NCBI GenBank assembly: GCA_040377305.1
Contig: JBEIPA010000012.1
Location: forward strand, 1-64,000
Origin: Flavobacteriales bacterium
GTDB lineage: Bacteria > Bacteroidota > Bacteroidia > Palsa-965
Direction: 5' to 3'
Length of the DNA stretch: 64,000 nt
Positions 11,768 through 63,817 of this stretch are shown piece after piece (position 1 is the stretch's first letter; every line of letters starts with the position of its first letter). The translations under genes were made by a program, and so were the position numbers. The notes under the pieces were generated by a model. It made no database searches. It was not told the origin of the DNA and saw nothing but the letters and a program-made list of their open reading frames with translations.

Positions 11768-11824
11768 ACGGATTACTTGCTCTGTATTAAGATCGGATCA
11801 TTATATCATTGAATCATCCTATCA

Positions 11825-12792: not shown

Positions 12793-12806
12793 ATGGAAAC
12801 GAGTGA

Positions 12807-18846: not shown

Positions 18847-20274
18847 GTGTTGCACAAAGTCGTTATTCAGCTTGAAGCGGGTATCTACGGAAAGCTCAAA
18901 GAAGATTTCACTGCGAATCGCGGAGAGAAGATGCTTCAGCTCATGGAGCTTTATCGGAGTTCAGAGCCCGACACTGAAATCACAGCGAAACAGCTGGATA
19001 TAAATTCTACTTCCTTCTATACGCTTAAATCCAGACTGCAGGATAAAGTACAACGTGCTCTATTTGAGAATGCGTCTGACGTGTATGCCGATCTCCTGAA
19101 AAATCTAGCATCGATTCCTTATCTCGTTAACAACACACCGCGTGAAAGCGCCATTTTGTTGCTGGAATACCTCGCAGACGAACTGAAGAAAGCTGATCAG
19201 CCTGCAGAGCTTGCACAAGTGTATGCAGCGATGAAGGAAATGCACTCGTGGAGCCAGGATTATTACCATTATCAGCAACTCTATAATAAGTGTATTGCTT
19301 ACGCACTCGCCATTGAAAAAGCTCAGGAAACACGCACCCATTTTACACGCGAGTGCGCAATCTTTTGTTTAACGCATGCGCCGACCAATGATGTACTGCG
19401 TTTATATGTGAAGGAACTGAATAACACCAGCCGGGTTTATGAATCGCACCGGATTGGCTTGTACCGTCATACTGCAGAAGTTACGTACGCTTTGTTCGTA
19501 GATGAGAATCGCGACATTCCGGGAACTGATCTCACCGTTGAAGAAACCCTTGCAAGACTGAAGGAGATTATTGACGAGCACGGAGATGACCGGAATTACC
19601 GTTACGCGGCTGATATCTGGCAGTTCCTGAATTATGAATATTACACGTCGCTCGGACTTCATAAAAACGCAAATACATTTTTCGACGCATTGGTGAAGAA
19701 TGAGTTTCGATTGCTGTACCGCAGTCATCGTTCCCTCACCAGCCATATTCTGATTTCTGCCTTTGAACGTATTGCAAACGACAGCGCACTTACCGACAAA
19801 GTACTATCATGGATTCCGGAGGCGGACAATTATAATGTCTTTGTTCGTGTGAACTACATTCTGTTCCGTGCAGGTATTGCTATGCATCGCGGCGAATATG
19901 CAGAAGCTTCTGCTATGCTGAATGATTTCCTGAACGAGGTTTCTCTGAAAAACTATTTCGTGGCGGAATACAATATCAAGTTCCTGCACGTACTCGCTCT
20001 TTTGTGTGCAGAGAAAACAGAGCAAGCCGAAATTCAACTCAGAAGCATTTCACGCAAACTTGCTTCCACCGAAGGAAAAGAAGCCTTGCACAGTGGCGTC
20101 AATGAATTTCTCAATCTGTTCAAGGTTGCGATGTCGAACAAAGGCGGCGATCGCAAAGTGAAACTCACCGAAGCAGCCGACGCATTGAACAAAGTGCGCA
20201 AGCAAGGGAAAGTTTGTTTACCGCATATCAAGATCACAGAGAATGTGGTTGCTGCGTTGACGAAGCTGCTTTAA
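18847..20274 (+). CDS. Large all-helical, TPR-like hypothetical protein
   Basis: 475-aa ORF; N-terminal FYTLKSRL segment; resembles 43397-44866. Confidence 0.75.
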   Translation: MLHKVVIQLEAGIYGKLKEDFTANRGEKMLQLMELYRSSEPDTEITAKQLDINSTSFYTLKSRLQDKVQRALFENASDVYADLLKNLASIPYLVNNTPRESAILLLEYLADELKKADQPAELAQVYAAMKEMHSWSQDYYHYQQLYNKCIAYALAIEKAQETRTHFTRECAIFCLTHAPTNDVLRLYVKELNNTSRVYESHRIGLYRHTAEVTYALFVDENRDIPGTDLTVEETLARLKEIIDEHGDDRNYRYAADIWQFLNYEYYTSLGLHKNANTFFDALVKNEFRLLYRSHRSLTSHILISAFERIANDSALTDKVLSWIPEADNYNVFVRVNYILFRAGIAMHRGEYAEASAMLNDFLNEVSLKNYFVAEYNIKFLHVLALLCAEKTEQAEIQLRSISRKLASTEGKEALHSGVNEFLNLFKVAMSNKGGDRKVKLTEAADALNKVRKQGKVCLPHIKITENVVAALTKLL

Positions 20275-44923: not shown

Positions 44924-45520
44924 TCAAGTATACGACCTGGTGTTTTTGTAATCATCAGTTAAAATGGTCGGTATTGCTGAAGTGGTATACTTTCTAAAAT
45001 CCTTGACGGTTGTTTCATACTGCACATTGAGTGCCTGAAAAGCGTCAAATTGGATTTTGGAATAAATGTTGAATTTGAAGACGTGCATCTGACCATCTAC
45101 GGTCTTAAGATAAACAAGTGCATTACCGTTACGTTCTATATCACGATGGTTGTTTCTAAAACCACAATAATGGTCATAGAATAGGAGGAAGGTGTTGATA
45201 TGTGTTAGTGCTATAGCAAGTCGCTCATCCGGTTTTGTTATCGTGATTTCGTCCAACGTAAACGTAATTGTGCCGGCATAATTGCTGGGCTTGGGCCAGT
45301 CTGGATACAACCTCCGGATGTATTTATCAGTTACGAACAACAAACTCAAGAGTAATACGACAAATACAATTCCACGAGCCTCCCTTGAAACGGGAAGTGA
45401 TTGAACGACGAGCAGCGTAATGATTGCAACAACAACTGATCGTGCGATTCGCGCTAAGCAGCCGTGGTCTGAAAGAACATTGATGTCATCACGGTACAAA
45501 TTCAACTCAACGCTATTCAT
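44924..45520 (-). CDS. Membrane protein; distal putative cassette gene
   Basis: Two TM segments; ATG about 10 bp from the eroded repeat. Confidence 0.65.
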   Translation of the reverse strand: MNSVELNLYRDDINVLSDHGCLARIARSVVVAIITLLVVQSLPVSREARGIVFVVLLLSLLFVTDKYIRRLYPDWPKPSNYAGTITFTLDEITITKPDERLAIALTHINTFLLFYDHYCGFRNNHRDIERNGNALVYLKTVDGQMHVFKFNIYSKIQFDAFQALNVQYETTVKDFRKYTTSAIPTILTDDYKNTRSYT

Positions 45521-45527
45521 TTATTGT

Positions 45528-45614
45528 TGCTTATGGTTTTCGGATTGACATCATTAGCGTTTCCTTCAAATAACTATAACTGAAAAGTGGTTGGCAACAA
45601 TTACACTCTTATGC
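45528..45614 (-). repeat. Heavily eroded copy of the attC-like repeat
   Basis: ttatggttttcggattgacatcattagcgtttccttcaaataactataactgaaaagtggttggcaacaat aligns without gaps to the consensus; upstream gene's TAA sits at its end. Confidence 0.7.
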
Positions 45615-46046
45615 ATCAGTTTTCGCAAGGGCAGCTACTAACTCATCAGGCCTCTTTGTGGTCAATACAACTTTTGTTAGGCTGCCTGCTTCCGAAGTAA
45701 ATTCGATTGCAACTGTTTCTTTGACCCGTTCAACGTTAACTATGTTTTTGAGCGGAACGCGGTGAAGCATCTCATACTGTTGTAGAAAACTGGCAAAAAG
45801 CAAAGGACATTTAAGCCAAAGTTCGCTGTCTGTCACAACAATGTCCAGTCCGCGACTTGTTCCGCCCAGTCTGGTCATAAGAGTCCGAGTAGAGTGTCCA
45901 GACGCAGAACGATCCCGATATTTCACCAGTACCGTTTCGATATCTGGAAATATCGCAATTGCTTTTTTTCCTCGTGTATAAGCGAGATAAAACATAGTTA
46001 GCATCACGACACACCAACAAAGAAATAATACTGTTTGACCGTTCAT
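45609..46046 (-). CDS. Membrane-anchored hypothetical protein; putative cassette gene
   Basis: N-terminal TM segment; stop codon inside the eroded repeat. Confidence 0.65.
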   Translation of the reverse strand: MNGQTVLFLCWCVVMLTMFYLAYTRGKKAIAIFPDIETVLVKYRDRSASGHSTRTLMTRLGGTSRGLDIVVTDSELWLKCPLLFASFLQQYEMLHRVPLKNIVNVERVKETVAIEFTSEAGSLTKVVLTTKRPDELVAALAKTDA

Positions 46047-46104
46047 TTAATCGATTTTCCAAGCATTTATATTTCACGGTGATTTTTAGAAATTCCGGAA
46101 GCAG

Positions 46105-46563
46105 TTATTTCTCACAAATTTCCTTCAGCTTCTCCAATGCTTTTGGATATTTCTCGTTCATATAACCAACAAAATCTTCTGTGGTGTCTAAGTCAACAGT
46201 AACGGTCGTGGTTCCGTTGTTTTCTTCGAACGAATAGTTTTCAAATCCGTTTGCCCACTTTTCCACCTCAGGTCCGTCTGTAATTTCCTTGTCGCCTTGT
46301 ACAAGGCCATAATGTTGGATCGAAACAAATTTGCCGGGAGTGTTTTCCGCTATCCTGGAAACCATGCCTCCCTTTTCTCCGTTCTCCGAAACTCCGACAA
46401 AAAGAATTTTGCTTCCCTTGTCCCAGCTTCCTTCGAATGTCGAGGTTGCGTTAAACAGAGCAGTCCACTGCTCATACGTTGATTTATTGCTGATGCCAAG
46501 CATCACATCGTAAACCTTAGTTGCAGTTGCATTGATGTTTACTGTGAACTGGAGTTTTTTCAT
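46105..46563 (-). CDS. SRPBCC/AHSA1-like domain protein
   Basis: I.A...KVYD.M, YEQWT..F..S.FEGSW.KGSKI.F and ALEKLKEICE. Confidence 0.85.
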   Translation of the reverse strand: MKKLQFTVNINATATKVYDVMLGISNKSTYEQWTALFNATSTFEGSWDKGSKILFVGVSENGEKGGMVSRIAENTPGKFVSIQHYGLVQGDKEITDGPEVEKWANGFENYSFEENNGTTTVTVDLDTTEDFVGYMNEKYPKALEKLKEICEK

Positions 46564-46673
46564 GGTATTGAGTTTGTTTAGATTATACAGATTGTAATTG
46601 GAATGTTATTTCAATTCATATCTCGTGATACGAAACTTCAAATGAGCATAGACTGACTTGTTTCTGCATGCAG

Positions 46674-47927
46674 TTAATATTTTATCAGTTTCGTCGTATA
46701 AGTTTTATTGGAGTCAAGTTCCCCGATGGTTAGAAAATATATTCCCGGTTGTAAACTAATTTGAACCTCTCCATTGTGTATTTCATCCGCATAAACTAAT
46801 TGACCGACGGAGTTGTAAATGCTCAGATTTATGAGTCCGGTAACTCCAATAATTTTGAATGAATTATCAATTGGATTTGGAAATATACTGATGACTGAAC
46901 CAGAATAAAGTTCGTCATACCCCACAGACGAGGAGCAGTTTGATGGAATTGAATCGGTCGAGTAAAAGTCAGTGCAATTATTACAGAATACACTCTTCAT
47001 GAAGCAACTTGCTCTTTTAGCTCTAAACACACTACTTGCGTTTCGATAAATTCCATGTCCACCTGTGGTATCGATTGTTACTTCGCTGCAAATATTATTC
47101 GCAACCAAGTCATTATGTATTGCTCTGGAACCATTGAGTGTGTAGTGCAAAAATGAATTGTCCGAATCAATCTGAACTAATGTGTCAAGTTCCCCATGAA
47201 AAGCAATGGTTGGTAGCATTTCTACACTATCAATTTCGGATTCAGTTACGCCTCCCCAATTATTAAAAATGCCTTTGAATGAATAACTGTTTGATAAATT
47301 ATTTCCTGAAGTATAAAGGTTCCCTAATTCAACACTCGTAGCATTTGCGCTATACAACAACGAGATGCTGTCAAGTTCTGATTGGTCGGCATACACCATA
47401 CCTAATGCAAGTAATGAGCCTGCACTCTGACCTCCAACAAAAATCCAATTCGTATCTATTCTAACGGCATTTGCGTTGTTAACAACAAATCTCATTGCAG
47501 CGTGTCCGTCCTGAATGGCTCTGTATCTCGCCTTATATTGCCCGTATTCAGAAAAATCATGTCCAAGTCTGTAATTGACCGATGCACATACAAAACCTCT
47601 CAATGCCAAATGAACGCATAAGTCAGCGATGTCTCCGGATTGCTTGTCTCCTGAAGAGAAACCACCACCATGAAACAACATAATAAATGGACGTTTAGGC
47701 GACGAATCAATACCAAGATTTGGATAGTAGAGATCCAGAAGCAACGTGTCTGGATTTCCTAAATAATCTTGGGCGATACCATATTGAATATTTGTTCCAA
47801 TCGTAATTTCGGTTGAATCAAAGTATTGGACTTCGGTATATCTCGTATCGCTGGTGCAATACTGTCCATAAGTTTCTCCAATCAAAAGAAATATGGCCGA
47901 TGCAAGGACTAAAAATTTGGGTGTCAT
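46674..47927 (-). CDS. Secreted alpha/beta hydrolase with a T9SS CTD
   Basis: HGGGF, NYRLG, GQSAG and FHGELD; FPNP..PGIYFL. Confidence 0.85.
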   Translation of the reverse strand: MTPKFLVLASAIFLLIGETYGQYCTSDTRYTEVQYFDSTEITIGTNIQYGIAQDYLGNPDTLLLDLYYPNLGIDSSPKRPFIMLFHGGGFSSGDKQSGDIADLCVHLALRGFVCASVNYRLGHDFSEYGQYKARYRAIQDGHAAMRFVVNNANAVRIDTNWIFVGGQSAGSLLALGMVYADQSELDSISLLYSANATSVELGNLYTSGNNLSNSYSFKGIFNNWGGVTESEIDSVEMLPTIAFHGELDTLVQIDSDNSFLHYTLNGSRAIHNDLVANNICSEVTIDTTGGHGIYRNASSVFRAKRASCFMKSVFCNNCTDFYSTDSIPSNCSSSVGYDELYSGSVISIFPNPIDNSFKIIGVTGLINLSIYNSVGQLVYADEIHNGEVQISLQPGIYFLTIGELDSNKTYTTKLIKY

Positions 47928-47986
47928 TGATGTTTACTTTGAATAGATGTATTAACCTCTTGTTTTATTATTTATTTGTGAGTCCT

Positions 47987-48544
47987 TCACATAGAATTTC
48001 CATCAAAGTCAATTTTATACTTTGTGCCATCGAGATTAGTAAGTTCGATCCAGTCGCTTTCAATTTTGAACACTTCTTCTCCGTCAAGTGACATTAAAAT
48101 ACCAACCTCCTTAAATTCCCAATTTATATATCCATCGCGGTCAAGTTGGGTGACTTGCAATTCTCCGTGAACCAAATAATTGTCCTTGTGTTTGAATATT
48201 TGGAAACAAGAAGCAAAGTCTGCCTCGGTTTTCCATACGAGTTCCAGTTCAGTAAGTGTTAAGCAAAAAACGGAATTGCAGCAGCAGATTAGCAGTACAT
48301 CGTCGTCAATCAATGCTGAGTTTTGAGAAACATCTGTCTTGCCACCATAGCCGATAATTATACAGTCGCTGATTAGCTTTCCATCCTGGAAGATCTTGAC
48401 ACCGTGTTTTGACGTCGGAAAGTCGTATGCCATGGATGCGAAATGCTCTTTGGAATAATTGAAGGCATTATTGTCAACGCCAGATTCGTAACCCGGTTCG
48501 TTTAACACTTCAACTATTAAGTCCTTGTATTGATATTGGCTCAT
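47987..48544 (-). CDS. Hypothetical protein, beta-rich
   Basis: 185-aa ORF co-oriented in the array. Confidence 0.7.
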   Translation of the reverse strand: MSQYQYKDLIVEVLNEPGYESGVDNNAFNYSKEHFASMAYDFPTSKHGVKIFQDGKLISDCIIIGYGGKTDVSQNSALIDDDVLLICCCNSVFCLTLTELELVWKTEADFASCFQIFKHKDNYLVHGELQVTQLDRDGYINWEFKEVGILMSLDGEEVFKIESDWIELTNLDGTKYKIDFDGNSM

Positions 48545-48661
48545 TCTATTGTGTTCTTATAGTCCAATGATTAGGTTAAATATCGAAATTATCTAAACAG
48601 AACATTCTTTTACTAACTATTCGATGAACACGTATTAAACTACATCCGTCCGCACCACCAT

Positions 48662-49444
48662 TTACACATTCTGATTATGAAACTTCAAAACCTTAAATCG
48701 TTCTTTTGTCCAGAGAATGGTCATTATTGAAACGGGAATAGCGAGCATGTTGAAGAACACAAAATTTTCATAAAATTTCGGGAATTCTCCAAAAACAGTT
48801 TTCACAGGTTCATTCAACGACTCATCATTTAAGAACATAATGTTTACAAGCACGGTAACCACCAGCGCAATCACCATTGGCCAGATAGAAAACAAGCCAT
48901 GTACTTTTCCGGTCTGCGTATTCTTCAACATCTCCAGGTAGCCGTATTGATTGGTAACGCCGGTCATCTGATCGCCTGTTTTTACTTTACTGTATGAACT
49001 GCTTCCTTCCAGAGTTCGGCCGGAAATAGTTATAAAATACGTAGTACGTTTTTCAAATGTACTGCTACGCGTTCCGGACCGCGGCAGGTGTGTATTCACA
49101 GTCTCTGTCTTCGATCGTTTATCGGTAACAGTGCCTGAAACAAACTGGTAATTGAGCTTGGGCTTTTTTGATCCTGGGAGCGTTTCAATTAGTTTTTGAT
49201 TTCCCCATTTCAAATCTTGCAGCGGAGAACTGAATGCAACGATTTCCTTGTCCGGATTGATTTCAAAAATGAATTCAAATTTTTGCGTGAAGTCAATTCC
49301 TGACGGGAGACTTTTACCCCGTGTTTGTAACTTAAACTTTTCTCCGTTGATCATGAGTTCGTAAACGGGGTGAGGATCTCCGTATTCATCAAAATCACGA
49401 CTGCTGTAACGTTGAATATTGGAACGTACTACTTTATTGCTCAT
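48662..49444 (-). CDS. Membrane protein with C-terminal TM segments
   Basis: 260-aa ORF. Confidence 0.7.
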   Translation of the reverse strand: MSNKVVRSNIQRYSSRDFDEYGDPHPVYELMINGEKFKLQTRGKSLPSGIDFTQKFEFIFEINPDKEIVAFSSPLQDLKWGNQKLIETLPGSKKPKLNYQFVSGTVTDKRSKTETVNTHLPRSGTRSSTFEKRTTYFITISGRTLEGSSSYSKVKTGDQMTGVTNQYGYLEMLKNTQTGKVHGLFSIWPMVIALVVTVLVNIMFLNDESLNEPVKTVFGEFPKFYENFVFFNMLAIPVSIMTILWTKERFKVLKFHNQNV

Positions 49445-49498
49445 GAGGTGGGTGTTGTTCGCTGGTCTATTTGGAATATGTGCTGTTAGCGGCTGATT

Positions 49499-50563
49499 TC
49501 ATATTTTTAGTTTAAACTTTTCAAACTTATTTCCATTTTGTTTGTAAACTCCGTCATTGTCAGTTCCAAGCCAAATTATTCCGCTGCTGTCTTGGTAGAT
49601 AGATACTAGCAAGACATTTTCTGTACCCTTTTTTACTTCAAGGTTGGTGAGCGTTTTACCGTCATATTTCCAAACTCCACCACCATAAGTAGTCATGAAT
49701 AAATTACCATCTTGATCTACAATTCCTGAGTTGAAATAATGGGGTTTTTCTTTTCGAACACCCTTTATTATTTCATATTGTAAATTGTTCGATTCAATTT
49801 TATACTTGCTTATAAAATTGCTCAACCAAAAATATCCGTCTTTGTCTTGAATGATTGAACGAACACCGCCAGCAGTGCCATCTGGGAGAATTGAAAGTTC
49901 TTTTTCATCAAACCACATAAACGATTTTCCATCGTATCGGAACGCACCTGCTACAAAAGTTCCAAACCAAATATTTCCGTCTTTGTCTTTATTTATGCCA
50001 TAAACTGAATAAGGGTTATTGCTATTAAAAGGGCTGATTAGCGTGTCAATTCCAAACGCTTTATTTAAATCTTTCCGTGGCAATTTTAATTCAAAAAGAG
50101 AATCGCCACTATAACGGAATAAATCATTTGCATTGTAGCCAAACCATAAGTCATTCGGTAAAAGTTTCCATTGGTTATGTGACGATTTTATTGGCTTTAA
50201 AGTGGTAAATTGATTTCCGTCAAATTTGCTTATTCCTTTGTGTGTTTCGATGTATATGTTTCCGTCAGTATCTTCTTGAATACCACGGATTGAATCGTTC
50301 ACTAATCCGTCTACTGTTGTAAATTGTTTTAACTCGTTTCCATCTAAAGAATAGATACCGTTTCCATTGCTACCAAACCAATATTTTCCTTTTGAGTCTT
50401 GAAATATTCTCCAAATTTGATTATCCAGTTCAGAAATCACTTTGCCAATTTGTACAGTTTCTGTTTCAGTCTTTTTGTGTTCAGATTGCATCTGTCCTTT
50501 GCATGAGAGGAAACTAATCGAAACAAAAACTATTGAGATTGTTTTTATAGTGGTAATTGTCAT
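49499..50563 (-). CDS. Beta-propeller (Reg_prop-repeat) lipoprotein; cassette gene
   Basis: Lipobox FLSC; repeated I.QD..G.IWFG; flanked by GTTAGCGGC (49485) and GCCGCTAAC (50593). Confidence 0.85.
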   Translation of the reverse strand: MTITTIKTISIVFVSISFLSCKGQMQSEHKKTETETVQIGKVISELDNQIWRIFQDSKGKYWFGSNGNGIYSLDGNELKQFTTVDGLVNDSIRGIQEDTDGNIYIETHKGISKFDGNQFTTLKPIKSSHNQWKLLPNDLWFGYNANDLFRYSGDSLFELKLPRKDLNKAFGIDTLISPFNSNNPYSVYGINKDKDGNIWFGTFVAGAFRYDGKSFMWFDEKELSILPDGTAGGVRSIIQDKDGYFWLSNFISKYKIESNNLQYEIIKGVRKEKPHYFNSGIVDQDGNLFMTTYGGGVWKYDGKTLTNLEVKKGTENVLLVSIYQDSSGIIWLGTDNDGVYKQNGNKFEKFKLKI

Positions 50564-50594
50564 TTCAATATTAATATGGCTGGTTTAAAGTTGC

Positions 50595-50680
50595 CGCTAA
50601 CATTTCGCGGATTGGCGTCGCGCGCTTTTCCTTCTAATAAATATACGTGAAAAGCGCAAAGTGCCAATGCGCGATTAGGG
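50595..50680 (-). repeat. attC-like site, short class, with a mutated gene-proximal core
   Basis: cgctaacatttcgcggattggcgtcgcgcgcttttc...gaaaagcgcaaagtgccaatgcgcgatta. Confidence 0.85.
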
Positions 50681-51121
50681 GCTGATAGCTCTTATCGGTT
50701 TCCAAACGAAATAGAACGCTCCAATAAGTATGTTCACAAGCGAAATAATATAAACTGAATTATACGTTTCAGACCTATAATAACTCAATCCGGCTTCTGT
50801 GTGCATATTCACTCCGGGATGAGAATTGTCGACGATGCAAAATGCGAAAATTAGAATTCCGATAGCTTGTAATATAAAAATGGATCCTTTAGCCAATCTA
50901 CTCTTTACTTTTCGTGTCTGTCGAATAAAAACAAAGTAACAGACTGGAAAGACAACAAATAAGAAAAAGTAATTGTACATGATTGAAGTCACGTGCATAC
51001 CAAAAGTCACACCATCATGAATGTCCTTGGTCTGGATTCCAACGGAAGGGATAATCAGTGAAGAAGTCAACACGATCAGAAATGCCGATCCTAATTTATT
51101 GAGATTAGTGAAGTCTGTCAA
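50675..51121 (-). CDS. Membrane protein; cassette gene
   Basis: Four TM segments; stop codon in the repeat end. Confidence 0.65.
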   Translation of the reverse strand: MTDFTNLNKLGSAFLIVLTSSLIIPSVGIQTKDIHDGVTFGMHVTSIMYNYFFLFVVFPVCYFVFIRQTRKVKSRLAKGSIFILQAIGILIFAFCIVDNSHPGVNMHTEAGLSYYRSETYNSVYIISLVNILIGAFYFVWKPIRAISP

Positions 51122-51163
51122 CGTTCTTATGTTTGGAGTCGCTCAGTGCTTTTAGCAGTAGGG

Positions 51164-51694
51164 TCACACTTCGGCTTGAAGCAGTTTGTCAATACCTCGA
51201 ATTATCAAATCGCGATGGGCATAAAATGATTTCGGAAAATCTTCGGTACCAACATGTGGGCGCTTTTCCAATGCAAACCAATTGCGGAGACCTATCAGGT
51301 TCTCTTTTTTACGTGCCAATAGATACCGTGAATCAACCGCAACCTTATAGAAATATAGTTCATCAGTGAGTGTAGCTTTCTGAATCGAACCGCATTCTAG
51401 ACATTTTATAAGGCCGATCTTTTTGTCCAGTTCATCTGTTTCGGAAAACATTAGCGGATACAGATTCATTAGCCACGTTGGATCTTTCATCCAAACTTTA
51501 CCTCCGAAAAGTTCATTTACAATTATTCCATTGTCAGGCTTATAGCACGCGGAAATTTCAGAGAAAGTCGCGTTAGTATATCGATCCTTAATTACAGCTA
51601 TGTGCTCTTCATAAATCCGACGGAATGGGAAGGTGAACTGAGCTTTAGCAGAACAGGTAGGGCAAACCACATCAATGTCATAATTAATCGTCAT
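51164..51694 (-). CDS. Hypothetical protein with two CxxC motifs; cassette gene
   Basis: CPTC and CLEC. Confidence 0.7.
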   Translation of the reverse strand: MTINYDIDVVCPTCSAKAQFTFPFRRIYEEHIAVIKDRYTNATFSEISACYKPDNGIIVNELFGGKVWMKDPTWLMNLYPLMFSETDELDKKIGLIKCLECGSIQKATLTDELYFYKVAVDSRYLLARKKENLIGLRNWFALEKRPHVGTEDFPKSFYAHRDLIIRGIDKLLQAEV

Positions 51695-51706
51695 GTGGAC
51701 AATTAC

Positions 51707-51790
51707 GCTTAACGTTTATGGATTGGCGCCGCGCTTTTTCCTTCTAATAAATATACGTGAAAAGTGGAGGGTGACAATACGCTGTTACCC
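51707..51790 (-). repeat. attC-like site, short class
   Basis: gcttaacgtttatggattggcgccgcgc...aatacgctgttaccc. Confidence 0.85.
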
Positions 51791-51807
51791 GTAGCAGTTG
51801 TATCAAA

Positions 51808-52170
51808 CTACTGCTTATCTGTCTCATTTTTGAACTCCTCGAGCATGCGATAAAACATATCTATTGATTCCAAATGCTGCTGTTTCGATGGTATCGTTTC
51901 CAGCATAACGTTCCAATCGATTTCTCTCGGTTCGAAGCCCATGCATTTGGCAAGAATCATATTGGCCCAACCTGCTGTGGATTCGTAATAGTCAAGTTTG
52001 CTAGCAACCCAGTCGTGAAATGGGTCTGATTGTAATTCAAATTTGTCTTCAACCAGCGCATGATGGTAACCAGAAATGTAAATGTGTATACTTTTTAAGG
52101 TGAGTTCTCCAGTGAACATTGCTGGTCGACCTTCTATTTGCTTCAACACCGGATAACAGTTCAGTATCAT
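51808..52170 (-). CDS. Hypothetical protein; cassette gene
   Basis: 120 aa; RPAMF..., F.DWVA..L..YES..GW. Confidence 0.7.
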   Translation of the reverse strand: MILNCYPVLKQIEGRPAMFTGELTLKSIHIYISGYHHALVEDKFELQSDPFHDWVASKLDYYESTAGWANMILAKCMGFEPREIDWNVMLETIPSKQQHLESIDMFYRMLEEFKNETDKQ

Positions 52171-52176
52171 ATTTTG

Positions 52177-52260
52177 CGATTAGGGGTTTGGGGAATTGCG
52201 ACTCTCTTGTCCTTCTAATCAATATACATAAAAGCGCGTGGAGCCAATGCGCTGTTAGCA
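52177..52260 (-). repeat. attC-like site with the left arm degenerate
   Basis: Right half ccttctaatcaatatacataaaagcgcgtggagccaatgcgctgttagca is intact. Confidence 0.75.
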
Positions 52261-52264
52261 CCAG

Positions 52265-52765
52265 TTATTGTTTGCTCCGCTCTTCCCACCACTTTTTTAT
52301 TTCCTGTACTCTTGTCGAATCAGTGATAGAACAGTCGACAAAGAAATTTGGGTACGGCTCATTTTTTCGATACGAATCAATTATATTCATCACCTGCCCT
52401 CCCAATGTAGAAAAATCATCACTGCCTGGCTTCCAATCGGATGAAATTGATTCCTTGACGCATTTAGCACGCCGCTTGGATTCTATTAATGTCATCAAAT
52501 AATTTAAGTCAGATTCCTTAATCCAATCCGATTTGGCTCTGTTTCCAGTTGTCAGGCGATAAATGGTATATATTCCCCTTTCTTCGAATTTGAGCAGTTC
52601 AACATAATCTACCACTGTAATTCTGTGAAAAAAAATCCAATCGTATTTATGGCGTTTTTGCTTATAGCGGTGGGTCGCTTCATTTAAATTAGCTCTTTCC
52701 ATTGAGTCTGCATGGTCCGAACATGCTGCCAGACTAATTGCAAATATTAAGAGCAGTCTGATCAT
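52265..52765 (-). CDS. Hypothetical lipoprotein; cassette gene
   Basis: Lipobox LAAC. Confidence 0.72.
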   Translation of the reverse strand: MIRLLLIFAISLAACSDHADSMERANLNEATHRYKQKRHKYDWIFFHRITVVDYVELLKFEERGIYTIYRLTTGNRAKSDWIKESDLNYLMTLIESKRRAKCVKESISSDWKPGSDDFSTLGGQVMNIIDSYRKNEPYPNFFVDCSITDSTRVQEIKKWWEERSKQ

Positions 52766-52776
52766 ATTAAAATTGG

Positions 52777-52856
52777 TGGTAACGTTTTTCGGATTGGCGC
52801 CGCGCGCTTTTCATTCTAATAAATATACGTGAAAAGAGCCCTTGAGCTGGTTAAGA
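52777..52856 (-). repeat. attC-like site with the right arm degenerate
   Basis: tggtaacgtttttcggattggcgccgcgcgcttttcattctaataaatatacgtgaaaag. Confidence 0.8.
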
Positions 52857-53258
52857 ATTGGTGTTTTCCCGATGTGCCACTTTGAACAGCATTGCGATTT
52901 GAATAAGCCCAAGAACCAGGAATGGAATTGCTGTCCACAAGTAAATGTCAGTCCCTCGCCAATAGCAATCAGGAATGATGAAAAATTGATAATGGACAAT
53001 TTCAATCGTGAGGAGAATGAATCCTGCAGCGAAAAATTTGAGAGACCTTAAGTTCGAAGTTGCAATCGCTAGTATTAAGCAAAGTAGTCCGATGAAATAT
53101 ATTAGTGCTATGAAAAAACTGTCGAGGGTTGTTAGCGACAAGTTAAAAGCCATTAGTCCAATTGTAGGGAATGAGAATTTGTTGCCGCTTCTAAATTGTA
53201 TCAAAGTTAAAACGAGGCAAGCAATTTTCAGAAATAATTGACTTCTTCTGGAGATCAT
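52851..53258 (-). CDS. Membrane protein; cassette gene, start reassigned to ATG 53258
   Basis: MISRRSQLFLK..., four TM segments; the upstream ORF extension is repeat translation. Confidence 0.65.
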   Translation of the reverse strand: MISRRSQLFLKIACLVLTLIQFRSGNKFSFPTIGLMAFNLSLTTLDSFFIALIYFIGLLCLILAIATSNLRSLKFFAAGFILLTIEIVHYQFFIIPDCYWRGTDIYLWTAIPFLVLGLIQIAMLFKVAHRENTNS

Positions 53259-53266
53259 ACGCTTGC

Positions 53267-53352
53267 TGCTAACGTTTTGCGGATTGGCGCCGCGCGCTTT
53301 TCCTTCCAATAAATATACGTGAAAAGCGCATGGTGCCAATGCGCTGTTAGCG
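53267..53352 (-). repeat. attC-like site, short class, intact, 86 bp
   Basis: tgctaacgttttgcggattggcgccgcgcgcttttc...gaaaagcgcatggtgccaatgcgctgttagcg. Confidence 0.9.
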
Positions 53353-53359
53353 TATCGTG

Positions 53360-53842
53360 CTACCGACTTTTGTTCTTCGATTTATTGCGAGCTTCAAATT
53401 CTGCGATCAGGGTGTTCAATTGAATTACCTGTTCAGTATTAATTGAACCTGTTTGTTGTGCTACAACTATATTGTCGATGACATAGTCGTATTCATGAAT
53501 GTTCTTTATTTTATTTCTTCGGAGAGCATCCTGAATCGCATCCTTCTTTTTGAATTGAAGTCCCGCACTTGCAATCAATTGCCAGAATTTGTCACTGTCA
53601 GGCCCCGCAGTTTCATTCCAGTAGATTAGAAAGTCATGTTCAAGATATTTGAGACTGGCGACCTTTCTGAATTGCGGCTCAGGATTTAGTGCCAATTTCC
53701 TAGTATTGGATGAAAAGAACAAAAGTGGCTCCTTGATGGATGCAGGCAAAGTTGACGATTCAGAAACTACCTGTTCGGCAATATCGATTGCTTTAACCAA
53801 TTCATTGGCTCGCTCTTCATAAATCGACTTCTTGGTAGTCAT
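53360..53842 (-). CDS. Hypothetical protein; cassette gene
   Basis: 160 aa between two repeats. Confidence 0.75.
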   Translation of the reverse strand: MTTKKSIYEERANELVKAIDIAEQVVSESSTLPASIKEPLLFFSSNTRKLALNPEPQFRKVASLKYLEHDFLIYWNETAGPDSDKFWQLIASAGLQFKKKDAIQDALRRNKIKNIHEYDYVIDNIVVAQQTGSINTEQVIQLNTLIAEFEARNKSKNKSR

Positions 53843-53852
53843 AGGGCATGTA

Positions 53853-53939
53853 CGCTAACGTTTTGCGGATTGGCGCCGCCCGCTTTTTCCTTCTAATAAA
53901 TATACATGAAAAGCGCGTGGTGCCAATGCGCTGTTATGC
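53853..53939 (-). repeat. attC-like site, short class, intact
   Basis: cgctaacgttttgcggattggcgcc...ggtgccaatgcgctgttatgc. Confidence 0.9.
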
Positions 53940-53944
53940 GGTAG

Positions 53945-54388
53945 TTATTTTATCTCAGAAACGTGAATGTCGCTACATGTTATCACGTTGATGATATGTC
54001 TTGCCGTTACGACAACATAGTGCCGAATTGAACTTTCCGAATTTAATTGGAATCCCAGCGTTTCATTTCTGCAGTATGTGAGGTAAGATGATTTCGTGTA
54101 AACTCTAATGCGATCGCCGTCGTACTCGCCAAATACGCCAGCGTCATAGCTTTCGTTAACAACGTGATATGCGATATAAGACGTAAAATGTAATCGATAT
54201 AATGCGCCGGAGTCGAAATTTACCGGGTAAACCGGACCTATATCGGTTTGTGATATGTTTAAACTCTGGGAAAGTTCGGACACTTCGCCTGCAATCAGAT
54301 CAATTATCAATTCATTCTCGCTGGGTTCAAATAATTTATCAACTAACAGGTTTCGGCAAGCATTAACTATGTCGTATGGTGTTGTCAT
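53945..54388 (-). CDS. Hypothetical protein; cassette gene
   Basis: 147 aa between two repeats. Confidence 0.75.
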   Translation of the reverse strand: MTTPYDIVNACRNLLVDKLFEPSENELIIDLIAGEVSELSQSLNISQTDIGPVYPVNFDSGALYRLHFTSYIAYHVVNESYDAGVFGEYDGDRIRVYTKSSYLTYCRNETLGFQLNSESSIRHYVVVTARHIINVITCSDIHVSEIK

Positions 54389-54395
54389 AAATTAC

Positions 54396-54481
54396 GCATA
54401 ACGTTTTGCGGATTGGCGCCGCGCGCTTTTCCTTCTAACTAATATACATGAAAAGCGCGTGGTGCCAATGCGCTGTTAGGC
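54396..54481 (-). repeat. attC-like site, short class, intact, 86 bp
   Basis: gcataacgttttgcggattggcgccgcgcgcttttc...gaaaagcgcgtggtgccaatgcgctgttaggc. Confidence 0.9.
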
Positions 54482-54904
54482 GTTGGACTTTCCTGAAGTT
54501 CCTTGAAAAACATCTTTATATTCAGGATGCTTCTTTTTGTCACTTGCCGAGAGCACGGTTCGCAATGCATTAGCGAGCACCCACTTCATGGATCGATCTT
54601 CTTCTTTATAGAAATGTTCGAGTAATTTGTCTTTCGCAATCGATCGGGCCGATTTCTCAGTTAGTGCTCTGATAATGCCTTCTCTTATACGCGAATGATG
54701 CGGAAGGTCAAGGTGTTTAACCAGGATTGGGTAGGCCTGTTCGTACGAACCGAGAAACTTGTTTTCTAAATGCTCGACAGCACGATTATTTACTAAATCA
54801 TAAACACTTTCTACAATACATCCTACGGCATTCAGTTCACGAACAAGTGTCTCTTGGTCTTTGAGAAGCATCTGATGAAATTCTTGTTTTTCAAGCTCGT
54901 TCAT
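54476..54904 (-). CDS. Helical, HEAT-like hypothetical protein; cassette gene
   Basis: IREGIIRAL and MKWVLANAL; TAA overlaps the repeat core. Confidence 0.75.
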   Translation of the reverse strand: MNELEKQEFHQMLLKDQETLVRELNAVGCIVESVYDLVNNRAVEHLENKFLGSYEQAYPILVKHLDLPHHSRIREGIIRALTEKSARSIAKDKLLEHFYKEEDRSMKWVLANALRTVLSASDKKKHPEYKDVFQGTSGKSNA

Positions 54905-54917
54905 GTACGTGTCTTGC

Positions 54918-55049
54918 GCCTAACGTTTTGCAGATTTGCGATGGGCGGGCTTTTTAACACAACTGGTCATTCGGAGAACTGAACTTTCGGTAACCACAAA
55001 ACTGTCTGCGGAGAACGAAACCCTGCCTATTGCAAATGTGCTGTTATGC
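54918..55049 (-). repeat. attC-like site, long class, 132 bp
   Basis: gcctaacgttttgcagatttgcgatgggcggg...ccctgcctattgcaaatgtgctgttatgc. Confidence 0.85.
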
Positions 55050-55061
55050 GTTCGCCATTCT

Positions 55062-55673
55062 TTACTCATTGGTGATGTCCTCAATTTTAGTTGCAAATTT
55101 TCTGTTGTCCTTTGAGATATGTTCGTAGTTGTCTTGTCCAACAAAAAAACTCGAAGGTGTCCAACTGTTTGTTAAAGGAGTTTTCAAATTGTCCAAGTAA
55201 TATTGTCCTGAAACTTCAAAGTCAAGAATTGCAAGTTGAAAAGGGTAGATTTTATATAACTGTTTCAATATTGTCGCAAAGAACTTTTTCAACTCGCTAG
55301 GGACTTTTGGGTTTTCAGTCCAAGTTTTGTATTCAGAACCGAACACCTTTTCTATTGCTGCTGTGTAAAAACAAATGTCAAACCAATTAAAGCCAGTTTC
55401 TACTGGCTCGTCTTCTCGTATATTGTATGTCATAAATGGAATTGCATAATTGTCAAGGTGCAAAACTCCAATATGTTGAATATTTACAATGTCAATTGGG
55501 ATTGAATTATTATTTACGTCAAAAGGTCCTTCAACGTTTTTTAAAGACCAAATAAAGTCAGTGTAAAGCCTTATTGGTTCGTTGTCTGCACTGGGACAAA
55601 CTTGAATAGCAAGTTCGTAAAAACCACCTGTTCTTAATTCTTTGTCAAGAAGTATATCGTTACTTTTTGTCAT
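55062..55673 (-). CDS. Hypothetical protein; first, integrase-proximal cassette
   Basis: 203 aa flanked by GTTATGCGT (55043) and ACGCATAAC (55705). Confidence 0.78.
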   Translation of the reverse strand: MTKSNDILLDKELRTGGFYELAIQVCPSADNEPIRLYTDFIWSLKNVEGPFDVNNNSIPIDIVNIQHIGVLHLDNYAIPFMTYNIREDEPVETGFNWFDICFYTAAIEKVFGSEYKTWTENPKVPSELKKFFATILKQLYKIYPFQLAILDFEVSGQYYLDNLKTPLTNSWTPSSFFVGQDNYEHISKDNRKFATKIEDITNE

Positions 55674-55704: not shown

Positions 55705-55753
55705 ACGCATAACTAGTTTATTTGCGCTACATCGTAGCGCAAATAAACCCTAG
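55705..55753 (-). other. Putative attI-equivalent primary integration site
   Basis: Last TAAC core of the array, abutting a perfect 15-bp inverted repeat gtttatttgcgctac-atc-gtagcgcaaataaac rather than an attC body. Confidence 0.65.
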
Positions 55754-55803: not shown

Positions 55804-56685
55804 TTAAAGTGAATCGAAAGGCGAACGTATTTTCCCGATTGCATGGGCGCTTACGTGGGTATAAATCTCTGTCGTTTTGCTGCTCGCATGCCCCAACAAC
55901 TCCTGAATGTATCGAAGATCTGTTCCCGACTCCAGCAGATGAGTGGCAAAACTGTGCCGTAACCAATGAAGTGTGACCGGTTTCGTAATTCCCGCTCGGG
56001 CAACACTTTGCTTCAGCACCTGCTGCAAACTCCGGGCATCGTAGGGTTGACCGCACTCTTGTCCTTCGAATAGATATTTTACAGGACGATACGATTTGAA
56101 ATATTCACGCAACTGCTCGAGAATCTTTTCACTCAACGGAACAATTCTGTCCTTACGGCCTTTCCCATTCTTAATGATGACGAGCATGCGATTCGAATCA
56201 ATATGCTCCGGCAAAAGACCGATCAATTCTCCACTGCGCAATCCGCAACTGTAAATGAGCGATAACATAGCTTTGTGCTTGGTATTTATTGTGCGTGTAA
56301 GCAGAAGCTTTACTTCTTCTTTACTCAGCACATTCGGTAGTGGCTTTCCGCGACGCGGCCGATAGATCAATTCCGGATTCAGAATCTTATTGTGCAGAAT
56401 CCGGAAGTACAACTTTATTGCGTTGATACATTGATTCTGAAAGGACACAGACAATTCCTTCGCAATGATGTATTCCGAATTGAAACGCTGTACATCTGTG
56501 TTTGTAATCACAGAAACATCCTTGTCGCAAAAGGAAATAAATGTCCGTAAGCATTCCGTGTAAACCTTTATCGTACCATTACTATAACGGCGCGACTTCA
56601 GCCAGTCACTGAACTGTTCCATAGATGGAGTGGGTGCTCCCCGTCCGACCGGCTCGTCCGGGCGGGCATAAGTGTTCTCTTTCAT
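55804..56685 (-). CDS. Tyrosine recombinase / integron-like integrase
   Basis: YS..TI..Y N-terminal domain, LPNVLSKEEV, YSCGLRSGE, GKGRKDR, HWLRHSFATHLLESG.DLR.IQELLGH, TTEIYTHV, C-terminal RSPFD. Confidence 0.92.
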   Translation of the reverse strand: MKENTYARPDEPVGRGAPTPSMEQFSDWLKSRRYSNGTIKVYTECLRTFISFCDKDVSVITNTDVQRFNSEYIIAKELSVSFQNQCINAIKLYFRILHNKILNPELIYRPRRGKPLPNVLSKEEVKLLLTRTINTKHKAMLSLIYSCGLRSGELIGLLPEHIDSNRMLVIIKNGKGRKDRIVPLSEKILEQLREYFKSYRPVKYLFEGQECGQPYDARSLQQVLKQSVARAGITKPVTLHWLRHSFATHLLESGTDLRYIQELLGHASSKTTEIYTHVSAHAIGKIRSPFDSL

Positions 56686-56795
56686 ATTTTATCTTTTTCG
56701 TAGCGTACATATAGCTGCAAAGTAAAATGATAAAAATGAAATAGCCGTTTGTAAACGTTTGTAAACGGATAATCTCCGGTATTCGACGAAATTCA

Positions 56796-57043
56796 TTGTC
56801 ATCCCGATAGCTATCGGGATGAGCGTAGCCGAAGGGTGACAAGTGAAGGCCAGACTGAACGTATCCAGATAGCGATCGGGAGACGGGTGATAAGCAGCGT
56901 AGTCGAATTCACTTCTGTTGATCTTGGTACATTGTCAGATTGAGCACTTCGACAGGCTCAGCACAGGCTTCGCCGAAGGTTGACAAGCAGAATTGTGAGA
57001 CTCAGCGCCTGACCGCTGTGGAGCGTAGCTGAAGGTTGACGAA
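56796..57043 (+). repeat. Cluster of REP-like units with nested insertions
   Basis: tgagcgtagccgaagggtgacaa units; perfect palindrome atcccgatagctatcgggat; ttcgacaggctcagc insert. Confidence 0.7.
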
Positions 57044-57046
57044 CAG

Positions 57047-57082
57047 AAAACAAAAGCCCACGAAGTTTAAACTCCGTGGGCT
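57047..57082 (-). terminator. Intrinsic terminator of the large surface-protein gene
   Basis: agcccacg/cgtgggct stem with a T-rich tail on the minus strand. Confidence 0.75.
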
Positions 57083-57101
57083 CCGTGTACTTCGTGATCA
57101 A

Positions 57102-60100
57102 CTACTGACCCCGAATAACTCGTATCGTCTGAACACTGCTACCCACCAACCTCACCGAATAAATTCCATCCGCCCAATCATTCATATCCAACTGCGTAGT
57201 GGTTTTTCCTTCGACGTTCTCGGCATAAACCAGTTTGCCGTTTGCATCAAACACTTCGAGTGTGGAAACGTTTGCATCTGCTGTCCACTGCACCGTTGTG
57301 AAATCAGCAGCTGGATTTGGATAAGCGAGTACTCCATTGCTTTGTGTAACACCATCGATTCCCATGCACAGGTCGACAAACACAATGGCATTCGCGGAGT
57401 TGTAGCAACCGTTTCCATCCGTGTAATCGTAGGTCAAGGTTACGAAACCTGTTCCTGCTGCTCCAGGGAAGAATTGATTTCCGATAATTCCCGGACCGGA
57501 ATACGTTCCGCCTGCTGGTGAACCGCCTGTAAGTACCAGCGGATTACTGAATACACAGAACGAAGTATCGTTGCCCATCGAGAACTGAACATTTGGTAAT
57601 GGATTCACCGTGACATTGATTGCAGTCGATGTAACTCCGCACGATCCGTTGGAAACATCAACCGTGTAACTTCCTGATTGCGTCACCACAATTGAACTTG
57701 TTGTTGCACCTGTACTCCAGAGATACGATGTACCACCACTAGCAGTGAGTGTAACCGCACCGCCTGCGCAGAATGTTGTCGGTCCGCCTGCAGAAATGTT
57801 TGCAGTAGGAGGAGGGACAACCGTTACCGAAATAGAATTGGAGTTTGCAGTACATCCGTTCGCGCCTGTCACCACACAATCGTAAGTTCCGGATGCTGAA
57901 ACAAGAATGGATTGCGTTGTAGCGCCTGTGCTCCACAAATAGCTATTCGCACTTGCTACCGTAAGCGTTACGTTTCCACCTGTACAGAATGTTGTTGGTC
58001 CACCTGCAGAAATGCTTGCAGTAGGAGCCGGATTCACAACAACCGTAATGGTGGAAGTTGTATCGCTGCACATTCCGTTGGAGACGATGCAATAGTACGT
58101 TCCTGCAACACTTACGTTGATTGCAGTAGTTGTTGCACCTGAACTCCACAGGTAATTAGTGCCGCCACCAGCTGTGAGTGTTACAACATCGCCCTGACAA
58201 ATTGTAGTAGATCCGGAAGCAGTGATTGTTGCGCTCGGAGTTGAGTTTACTGTAACCGTTATCGGCGATGAAACTGCGGTGCATCCATTCGCCGAAGAGG
58301 TAGTGACACTATACGTTCCTGAAGTAGAAACTGTAATGGCTTGCGTCGTTGCGCCTGTGCTCCATAAGTAACTATTCGAAGCATCTGCTGTTAGTGTTAC
58401 GTTGTCGCCCGCGCAGAAACTCAGCGGACCTGATGCCGTGATTCCTGCTGTTGGCGCTGGATTAACTACCACAGTTACCAGTGAAGTTGTATCAGTACAA
58501 GTTCCATTGGAAACAACACAGTAGTAATTTCCTGCAGTACTTACGTTGATTGCCGTCGTTGTTGCTCCTGTGCTCCACGTGTAAGTGGTGCCACCACCTG
58601 CAGTTAAGGTTACCACATCTCCCTGACAAATTGTTGTAGGACCAGACGTGCTGATCGTTGCGTTCGGAGTTGTGTTCACGGTAACTGTTACCGGCGATGA
58701 TTGTGCAGTACATCCATTCGCTCCGGTGGTAATTACGTTGTACGAACCGGAAGTTGTGACAACGATTGAAGAAGTTGTTGCACCTGTGTTCCACAAATAA
58801 CCGTTAGCAGCATTGGCAAACAATGTTACGTTATCGCCAGCGCAGAATGTTGTAGGTCCGCCAGCTGTAATGCTCGCTGTTGGTGATGGATTTACCGTAA
58901 CCACTACGGATGAAGTTGTGTCTGTACACGATCCGTTTGATACAACGCAGTAGAAAGTTCCGCTTGTGCTTACGGTGATTGCTGAAGTTGTTGCTCCTGT
59001 ACTCCACAGGTAAGTTCCACCACCGCCTGCAGTGAGTACAACGTTATCTCCCGAACAGAATGTTGTTGGTCCGCCGGTTGAAAGTGTTGCAACTGGTGGC
59101 GCGATTACATTCACATTCACGACCTGTGAATTCGAAACACAACCGTTTGCATTGGTCACGGCTACGGAGTACGCACCGCCCGAAGTCACCAGTATCGTTT
59201 GCGTAGTAGCCCCGTTGCTCCATAAATAAGAAGATGACATCGGAACAGAAAGTGTAACGCTTCCACCCGAACAGAAGGTTGTTGGACCGCTTGGTGTGAT
59301 TGTCGCATTCGGCATTGCAATAACGTTGATGCGTGCTGTATCTGTTACGTTCACGTTTCCGCAACCGGGCTGTGAGATTGTAATCGTAATGACTTGTGTT
59401 CCTGATCCCATTCCGCTTGTGTTAATCGGAATGGTCAATGCAGAACCGGTTCCGTTTGTTGCTGCAGAAACTGGAGTGCTGTTCCAGAATGCCTGATACG
59501 TTACGCCAACCTGACTTGTGTTCAATGTTACGTTTGAAGTTGTAACATCATCGCAAATGGTTGCACCGGAAACTGTCATGGCCTGCGACATTGGATTGTT
59601 GTACACAGCAATGACGGGTGTGCGTGTCGGTGATGGGCAACCGGCAGCAGAAACAATGACAACCCAGAATGTATCTGTTGCTGTAAGATTGGTGAGCGTG
59701 TACGTTCCGGAAGTTTGTCCGTTGATCGGAGTTCCGTTAACTGCAACGCTATACCACTGATAACTTCCACCAACTGGTGCACCACTCGCAGTGAGTACTG
59801 CATTTCCGCTTCCGCAAACGGTATCGTTAACTGTTGTTGCAGCTACAGGAAGCGGATTCACAACCACCGTGTTTGTTTGTGGAGTAGTTACGCATCCGTT
59901 AGGATTTGAAATGACGAGTGTATAAACTCCTGCGTGAATTGCAGCTGCATTGAGAATAGGAGCAGGCACTTGCTGATTCGAAGTGAAACCATTTGGTCCG
60001 TTCCAGGAATAAGTTGCTCCTGCAATCAACGGTGAGCTGAGCTGAATGATATTTCCTTCGCACACGGGTGAATTCGAAAACGCAACCATGTTGTTGTGAT

Positions 60101-63593: not shown

Positions 63594-63817
63594 GATTTTT
63601 TTGTTTGTTTCACGATCACAATACAAAAGTATTGCCGTGACAGCGGGCAAATTTACCGGACAGAACTCGTAACCGCGATTAAGGACTTACTTTTGGTATT
63701 TCCATGACGTAAGTCGTTGAAAACTAGCAATTAAAGGTACTTGGATGTGAACTCACAGTACCCTTGTGTCAAGGTTTTGTCGATTGACTTATCTTCGCAG
63801 GAACAAACAAAAAACAC

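Follow-up and report, generated by a model that had tools for sequence, protein, structure and literature searches.

Repeats beside an Xer-like recombinase in a Flavobacteriales genome as candidate attC-like cassette ends with a bulged hairpin fold

We analysed a 64,000-nt stretch of a Flavobacteriales bacterium (assembly GCA_040377305.1, contig JBEIPA010000012.1, positions 1 to 64,000; the window), in which an array of short genes separated by inverted repeats adjoins the gene of an Xer-like tyrosine recombinase. The repeats probably represent attC-like ends of mobile cassettes, with a non-coding strand that is predicted to fold into a bulged hairpin and to be read by the adjacent recombinase; we give this reading a probability of about 0.7. 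What the comparison of related loci shows is a set of cassette boundaries at G↓TT (the arrow marks the crossover), a bulge of 3-4 nt in a constant register, a stem that covaries, a fixed T-A pair at k7, G·T pairs at k1 and k15, and a recombinase without the insertions of the integron integrase IntI. Here, k1, k2 and so on are the bases that follow AAC on the coding (top) strand, and the folded bottom strand is the + strand of the window. The locus is laid out as follows.

55804..56685, - strand: Xer-like tyrosine recombinase of 293 amino acids (aa), co-oriented with the array and upstream of it
55710..55722, - strand: attI-like core, with a predicted crossover G↓TTA between 55713 and 55712, placed by the family motif and by a cassette start shared with genome G041
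55717..55747: perfect 14-bp hairpin overlapping the attI-like site; across the family, attI is immediately preceded by palindromic units or a strong hairpin
55062..55673, - strand: gene of cassette 1, 203 aa, no Pfam, NCBIfam or PADLOC family, 89% DNA match in G041
54921..55046, + strand (the folded strand): long-class attC-like site, 126 nt, with a bulge at 54926-54929, G·G at k5 and G·T at k1, k12 and k15
54476..54904, - strand: gene of cassette 2, 142 aa, no family
54399..54478, + strand: short-class attC-like site, 80 nt, bulge at 54404-54407
53945..54388, - strand: gene of cassette 3, 147 aa, no family
53856..53936, + strand: short-class attC-like site, 81 nt, bulge at 53861-53864
53360..53842, - strand: gene of cassette 4, 160 aa, no family
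53270..53349, + strand: short-class attC-like site, 80 nt, bulge at 53275-53278, G·G pair 53282/53341 and conserved G·T pair 53292/53331
52851..53258, - strand: cassette gene 5, 135 aa counted from ATG
52780..52839, + strand: truncated short-class site, crossover-side half
52206..52259, + strand: truncated short-class site, gene-side half
51710..51787, + strand: decayed short-class site
50598..50677, + strand: decayed short-class site with altered core and k15
45528..45587, + strand: heavily decayed short-class remnant, the most distal one
44924..52765, - strand: older part of the array, with co-oriented low-GC genes and broken or lost sites

The array comprised 16 short co-oriented genes on the - strand at 44.9-55.7 kb, mostly without a family and with a GC content of 34-43% (genome, 45%). 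The four sites nearest the recombinase were intact, and those farther away were truncated or decayed. PADLOC returned no match for 14 cassette genes.

An earlier reading of the window from its letters alone (the sequence-only reading) had described two repeat classes with a common end architecture. The end sequences that it quoted were found at 53270-53349, 53856-53936 and 54399-54478 (short class, 80-81 nt) and at 54921-55046 (long class, 126 nt, a single copy in the window). The architecture at these four intact sites is real: in the + strand fold, all four paired the AAC/GTT core and a 3-bp stem (GCG/CGC or GCA/TGC), which led through the G·G mismatch into a long stem. When both strands were folded, the + strand had z-scores of -5.2, -4.4, -7.2 and -2.4 (sites at 53270, 53856, 54399 and 54921, respectively) and was more stable than the - strand by 4.5-7.4 kcal/mol. 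The unpaired spacer described as 5 versus 1 nt kept its asymmetry but not that form, as what forms is a single G·T pair and a bulge of four T. Similarly, the two classes, described as unrelated, differ in their loops (best local match 10 nt) but not at their ends, which were 18/20 and 14/16 identical; because the ends are nearly identical, these two classes alone cannot show selection on structure. The remaining imperfect pairs had been described as G:T on the + strand throughout; two did not conform, a wobble on the other strand at 53270 and a mismatch on both strands at 53856. G·T pairs at k12 and k15 were common to all four sites, and the k15 pair, together with a near-invariant T-A pair at k7, goes beyond what had been noted before.

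For a survey of the family, loci encoding homologous recombinases were collected from genomes, metagenomes and phages (80 each), along with 20 loci from relatives. After the window's own duplicate, one duplicate plasmid and G012 were left out, 261 sequences including the window were scanned with YAAC and GTTR fixed and at least 12 of 16 Watson-Crick pairs at any offset. Downstream of the recombinase in cellular loci, offsets 4 and 3 yielded 71 and 16 sites in genomes and 42 and 11 sites in metagenomes; every other offset yielded 4 sites or fewer, as did the upstream and reverse-strand control stretches. In phage loci (L184-L263), the arrays lay upstream of short recombinases in divergent orientation, with 126 and 147 sites at offsets 4 and 3 and 25 and 33 sites at offsets 2 and 6. 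Among 417 sites from 125 loci, a few false positives included, a G·T pair occupied k1 (inside the AAC/GTT core) in 395 and k15 in 368, a T-A pair occupied k7 in 403, and G·G was present at k5 in 49. Clustering at 75% reduced these sites to 110 clusters, 80 with the k15 G·T and nine with G·G. Wobbles were placed 188 times for the bottom strand and 29 times for the top strand, and the bottom strand was the more stable one in 87 clusters (mean -2.0 kcal/mol), so the proposed asymmetry in favour of the non-coding strand extends to the family. The sites were selected for pairing, which makes the share of paired positions circular, but neither the offset nor the position and strand of the wobbles follows from that selection. 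When k1 and k15 were left unscored, G·T was still found at k1 in 235 and at k15 in 219 of 242 sites. Another 51 sites (10 of them from a genome already in the set, and one spurious) came from eight additional stretches of six genomes; G·T at k1, T-A at k7 and G·T at k15 were present in 50 each, G·G in 10 and a more stable bottom strand in 36.

Covariation was examined on 22 aligned 126-nt sites, which were hand-picked and compared with shuffles that ignore relatedness. Both sides changed at 19 of 24 pairs, and the covariation was 0.685, compared to 0.167 for shuffled and at most 0.133 for slid alignments; compensatory change of this kind bears out the earlier proposal that structure rather than sequence is under selection. 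The same 22 sites had G·T at k1 in all 22 and at k15 in 21, and k5 was unpaired in five. A site model built on the long class also matched the short class, had no match in 45 kb of R100, and matched 34 of 40 published related genomes; all 17 of those that bear the recombinase had sites, with a mean of about 11 (these genomes are kin rather than independent, and several are incomplete). No Rfam family reached the threshold for the sites, and only sub-threshold matches to microRNA hairpins were returned.

The G·G mismatch, held to be conserved, is common to both window classes but not to the family (49/417 sites, 9/110 clusters). Among 144 cellular sites, it occurred only with the left ends AGCAC or AGCGC, which points to a tolerated marker of one lineage of ends, not a conserved functional element. 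The sequence-only reading had unrelated classes converge on the bulge and the G·G, which together would replace extrahelical bases. Both features are present in both window classes, the bulge is found family-wide, and 33 of the 110 clusters have a bottom-strand mismatch at k5 or k6, never at both. However, the other 77 clusters have no such mismatch, the G·G goes with two left-end sequences, the ends of the two classes are almost the same in sequence, and the bulge maps to the central spacer of attC, not to its L box; the T of the k15 G·T pair is a better stand-in for an extrahelical base. We therefore regard convergence as improbable. The earlier interpretation was half right: structure and strand are selected and the G·G is incidental, while the bulge, k7 and the k15 wobble are informative.

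Comparative evidence argues that cassettes move as units ending at G↓TT. The outer flank of a site agreed with the core of the previous site (at least 5 of 6 positions) in 91/102 cellular and 129/201 phage cassettes, and with its own core in 9/102 and 18/201; the four window cassettes agreed with the previous core at 5, 4, 4 and 5 of 6 positions. One 1.4-kb cassette, 94% identical from the G onward, came first after attI in L032, L054 and L087 and was internal in L041. Likewise, in the pairs L049/L116, L060/L133 and L132/L164 the same cassette followed attI in one locus and attC in the other, starting exactly at the G, and the first window cassette recurred in G041 (89%) behind an attC-like site, with its start exactly at 55713. 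In addition, L005 and L006 were identical through GTTA and divergent beyond. Such boundaries largely refute the idea that the repeats are repetitive extragenic palindrome (REP)-like or miniature inverted-repeat transposable element (MITE)-like elements spreading by themselves between genes. They are palindromic and intergenic and occur in 34 of the 40 published genomes searched, as such elements might, but they keep one orientation with one copy per gene, have shift-by-one flanks, form units of gene and site with exact G↓TT ends and decay away from attI, and no Rfam family covers them at threshold; of all the alternatives considered, this is the one we find hardest to credit.

Among 26 gene-sharing pairs, three differed in the site body, with the shared part ending at k4, k4 and k5 (window 55038-55046 versus L277; L028/L265; L273); the 23 others include repeated rows of one genome, and at least 4 shared positions are found in 9.7% of random unlike pairs. 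These three cases hint at exchange inside the overlap stem, possibly an L-side exchange.

An attI-like core, TATAWACDAG↓TTR, was located about 100 nt behind the recombinase stop in 136/166 loci, and a comparison with control stretches gave 120/140 against 7/118, 12/152 and 12/140. A strong hairpin preceded the core (z below -2 in 104/129) and showed no strand bias. At 45-75 nt upstream of the core, relatives carried a hairpin of palindromic units with lineage-specific sequence, and a perfect unit stood beside the core in 71/136 loci versus about 6 after shuffling; these units are possible accessory binding sites. As a possible counterpart of the integron cassette promoter Pc, the motif TAnnTTTG, which we take to be the Bacteroidota -7 promoter motif, was found about 82 nt before the crossover in 60/133 loci, compared to 5 in controls, and was absent from the window. 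The short class carries, on its coding strand (window 53312-53339 and 53899-53926, - strand), the sequence TTG-N19-TATATTTA, one base from what we take to be the Bacteroidota promoter motif; this promoter-like sequence could act on the next cassette.

The catalytic residues of the window recombinase were intact (R150, K175, H240, R243, H266 and Y275). Both IntI-specific insertions were absent, as gaps of 31 and 10 aa relative to IntI1, the enzyme scored 212 bits against TIGR02249 (cut-off 265), and its best NCBIfam match was NF040815. Its match to PDB 2a3v was split, the best PDB matches were to XerA, and its named relatives were nearly all from Bacteroidota; together with T9SS sorting domains, this marks the genome as one of that phylum. 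In a quick tree the base was unresolved and IntI1 formed a long branch, and no ancestry claim is drawn. A single-sequence AlphaFold model was unusable (predicted local distance difference test score, 41.7). A weakly HARP-like N-terminal domain of 60 aa was found in 141/155 cellular homologues (e.g. L004:9821-10012) and 1/61 phage homologues, and is absent from the window recombinase and the window genome; the closest relatives (P0002-P0015) are short too. The HARP label is weak (4o66 at E 0.03, Pfam HARP in 8/98, no significant fold match), and we rejected this domain as a general reader of the bulge, as the window enzyme and nearly all phage homologues are without it and yet have the same site geometry. 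Seven homologues (L009, L026, L047, L056, L066, L148 and L160) had an open frame of 154-155 aa, which suggests that the gene has repeatedly been broken or frameshifted at the same point.

In a different reading, the recombinase would use ordinary double-stranded Xer/dif-like cores and the hairpin would be kept for some other purpose, such as RNA processing, termination or DNA protection. The enzyme resembles XerA/XerD and is without every part of IntI known to read single-stranded sites, and a promoter-like sequence lies on the coding strand of the short class. However, the wobbles favour the non-coding strand rather than the mRNA, and the far end of a site shows covariation with its near end and agreement with the core of the previous site. 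As a duplex, moreover, the site would have the two conserved boxes beside its crossover 10-11 bp apart with freely variable sequence, more distance and variation than suits the Xer-type core of 6-8 bp given in passages of PMC2727003. We consider this alternative unlikely, though it deserves more weight than any other. XerA, XerC and XerD also differ from the window system in acting on single double-stranded dif sites, not on cassette arrays.

The array might instead be a cluster of attC sites lacking an integron integrase (CALIN) that a canonical IntI serves in trans, the neighbouring recombinase being a bystander. Both site classes do occur elsewhere in the window genome without a family recombinase gene (C12:7490-10460, C17:200878-201845, C49:14801, C4:18794 and C10:180497; the contigs C12, C17, C49 and C4 carry the recombinase-less arrays), and some attC sites still recombine without extrahelical bases, as stated in a portion of PMC5027507. 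On the other side, a tblastn search with IntI1 found no IntI in the window genome (only the window recombinase, two XerC/D-like genes and one phage-type integrase), the attI-like core follows the recombinase stop by about 100 nt family-wide, and sites are present in every one of the 17 published recombinase-bearing genomes. Service in trans is thus very improbable.

The cassette-end reading rests further on a comparison with canonical integrons. As reference we used the aadA1 attC of plasmid R100, in which k1 is A, GTT is preceded by C, k7-8 are TT and the extrahelical bases lie at k9 and k16. The passages of PMC5027507 on site structure name the extrahelical bases G16 and T23, with T24 in sites that have three of them. 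When the other extrahelical bases (k9) were removed from the count, the last T of aadA1 took helical position 15, which is that of the family's conserved wobble T. The window system shares with attC and IntI the AAC/GTT cores, the G↓TT crossover, a k1 A that faces C, and T both at k7 and at helical position 15; it also shares shift-by-one flanks, single promoterless genes, an attI beside the recombinase and a bottom strand more stable by about 2 kcal/mol (2.12 in the section of PMC5027507 on attC stability, close to the -2.0 kcal/mol found here). In contrast to the 5x6 unpaired spacer of attC, a paired and covarying 5-bp stem (k2-k6) is combined with a 3-4-nt bulge on the arm that is cut in integrons. 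No counterpart of the extrahelical G was found, since k7-k11 are paired in register in the four intact window sites and family-wide, in a scan that would miss a minority with a 1-nt bulge. Where attC has the extrahelical T23/T24, a conserved T at the equivalent helical position faces G (368/417). The recombinase differs from IntI in the absence of the 31-aa and 10-aa insertions, which hold G16 and the last T in VchIntIA according to excerpts of PMC3053210, and in its score below the TIGR02249 cut-off. The layout differs as well, with a co-oriented recombinase and attI at its 3' end in cells, while phage loci are divergent as in classical integrons. Taken together, the window system appears to work like an integron and differs from IntI/attC in three defining features. 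In the part of PMC8138268 that deals with 'integron-like' simple tyrosine recombinases, the insertion is called essential for integron function.

On the proposed mechanism, the recombinase would cut the folded bottom strand at AA↓C, and the partner in the joining step would be either the attI-like site or a second hairpin. Its two half-sites would be the AAC/GTT core and, at k7-k8, the T-A/W pair, with the same spacing between them as the uncut arm has in canonical attC. The bulge lies 3' of the predicted cut by two bases and would serve in place of the unpaired central spacer, in that it would free the exchanged strand and make the strands unequal; from its position and conservation, it is a likelier substitute for that spacer than for the extrahelical bases. 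At k15, the wobble T may be the counterpart of the last extrahelical T (T23/T24), and nothing appears to stand in place of G16, whose binding pocket, helix I2, is also absent, so that the loss of the base and the loss of its pocket agree. The roles of all these site features are inferred from position and conservation. As a more tentative extension, given the paired overlap region and the missing G16/I2 lock, a second, L-side exchange may also swap hairpin bodies between genes, which would explain different repeat classes with shared ends.

The closest published system is rAID-1 (recombinase-associated acquired interbacterial defence) of gut Bacteroidales (10.1101/471110; PMC12247911), described in passages of these papers as a XerD-like recombinase 5' of short co-oriented low-GC genes with motifs 'reminiscent of integrons'. 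Its definition there calls for a XerD-like recombinase more than 44% identical to BF9343_RS08045, at least two co-directional downstream genes with a GC content of at most 41%, orphan immunity cargo and the rAID-1 intergenic motif. The same passages, the motif figure aside, report motif enrichment only, with no fold, geometry, strand bias or recombination test. As a proxy for BF9343_RS08045, we used the rAID-like cluster L275 (12822-18840, with Tdi1 and SMI1/KNR4 genes), whose recombinase was 45.8% identical to that of the window over 271 aa. L275 shares an attI-like motif (with A replacing G), a core-proximal 3-nt bulge and a 5-bp stem, but its sites are about 48-60 nt long, have a C↓ATTA core and internal loops and did not match the window-family model; it is a sister variant. 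The window array has 16 co-directional low-GC genes, as rAID-1 would require, with a GC content of at most 41% in about 13 of them. No immunity family was found among the window cassette genes (Pfam, 16 genes; NCBIfam, 10; PADLOC, 14), most of which had no family at all. The window system is thus a close relative, not a shown member, of rAID-1.

A second comparison concerns tet(X3). The 'xerD/tnpF' gene beside tet(X3) on Acinetobacter plasmids is a member of the window recombinase family (43.5% identical) and is followed by an attI-like G↓TTA. From this G↓TTA into the gene, the tet(X3) DNA was identical in Acinetobacter and on an Empedobacter plasmid (L081:3633-5090, L083, L265:515-2030). It starts at the same G in both, after the recombinase and attI-like site in Acinetobacter and after a well-folded bulged attC-like site in Empedobacter, where a weaker site follows. 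On the Empedobacter brevis plasmid L266, arr, lnu(H) and tet(X2) each have a family site immediately behind them (11665-11790, 12722-12848 and 19046-19172). The Acinetobacter module differs in that its recombinase is annotated as 221 aa and its downstream site is incomplete. By its boundaries, tet(X3) is thus delimited as a cassette of the family would be. Passages of PMC7494873 and PMC13028724 treat the xerD/tnpF-tet(X3)-res module as ISVsa3-borne and do not contain the word 'integron', nor, in those of PMC7494873, 'cassette'. Our literature search, outside which lay the rAID-1 motif figure and tables that may bear on novelty, returned no description of this site geometry or of tet(X3) as a cassette, and the parts of PMC4961963, PMC13616975 and PMC8618304 that it covered contain nothing on this cassette system.

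Several observations weigh against the cassette-end reading. The beta-4,5 loop, which holds the extrahelical T in IntI, is also absent from the window recombinase. The attI-like core suits a 6- or 8-bp spacer, not the 7 bp of attI1. The bottom-strand z-score of the long window site is only -2.4, the bottom strand has no folding advantage in 23 of the 110 clusters, and a top-strand wobble occupies k6 in 20; the minimum-energy fold of the site downstream of tet(X3) in L265 is not the long hairpin. Sites were also found in 17 of 23 related genomes in which the query found no recombinase, with a mean of about 3 (again kin, several of them incomplete). No cleanly skipped cassette at G↓TT was seen in the contigs of three runs, and two joints near 53261-53352 fall within repeats and have unknown letters between them. 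The hand-picking of the covariation set and the selection of sites for pairing belong here too.

Some neighbouring features were also recorded. Small palindromic REP-like repeats cluster upstream of the recombinase at 56686-57100 of the window, and 57102-63650 encodes a protein of 2182 aa secreted by the type IX secretion system, with lectin, laminin-G and tandem Ig-like repeats (period 213-216 bp). In L082 (18534-19850), a group II intron lies within a cassette array of a Chryseobacterium plasmid, beside a family site.

In integron theory, the recombination of single-strand hairpins is bound up with the IntI insertion and with extrahelical bases. Here, an abundant natural family appears to keep the cassette logic without either, and its conserved features are few and can be mutated singly. 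A wider and more tentative proposal, to which we give somewhat less than even odds, is that a second family of recombination, specific for structure and acting on single-strand DNA, operates in Bacteroidota and in their phages, with an insertion-less Xer-like enzyme that reads hairpins marked by a bulge and a G·T wobble in place of extrahelical bases, and that this family includes rAID-1 and was the platform that carried tet(X3) to Acinetobacter. Standard finders report almost no integrons in Bacteroidetes, according to portions of the IntegronFinder 2.0 paper, yet the site model matches 34 of 40 genomes; a large gene-capture system may thus be being missed. On Empedobacter plasmids, the sites that bound arr, lnu(H), tet(X2) and tet(X3) would provide a concrete route for the assembly of resistance genes in Bacteroidota and a searchable signature for surveillance, and the proposed fold would offer a testable mechanism for gene acquisition by rAID-1.

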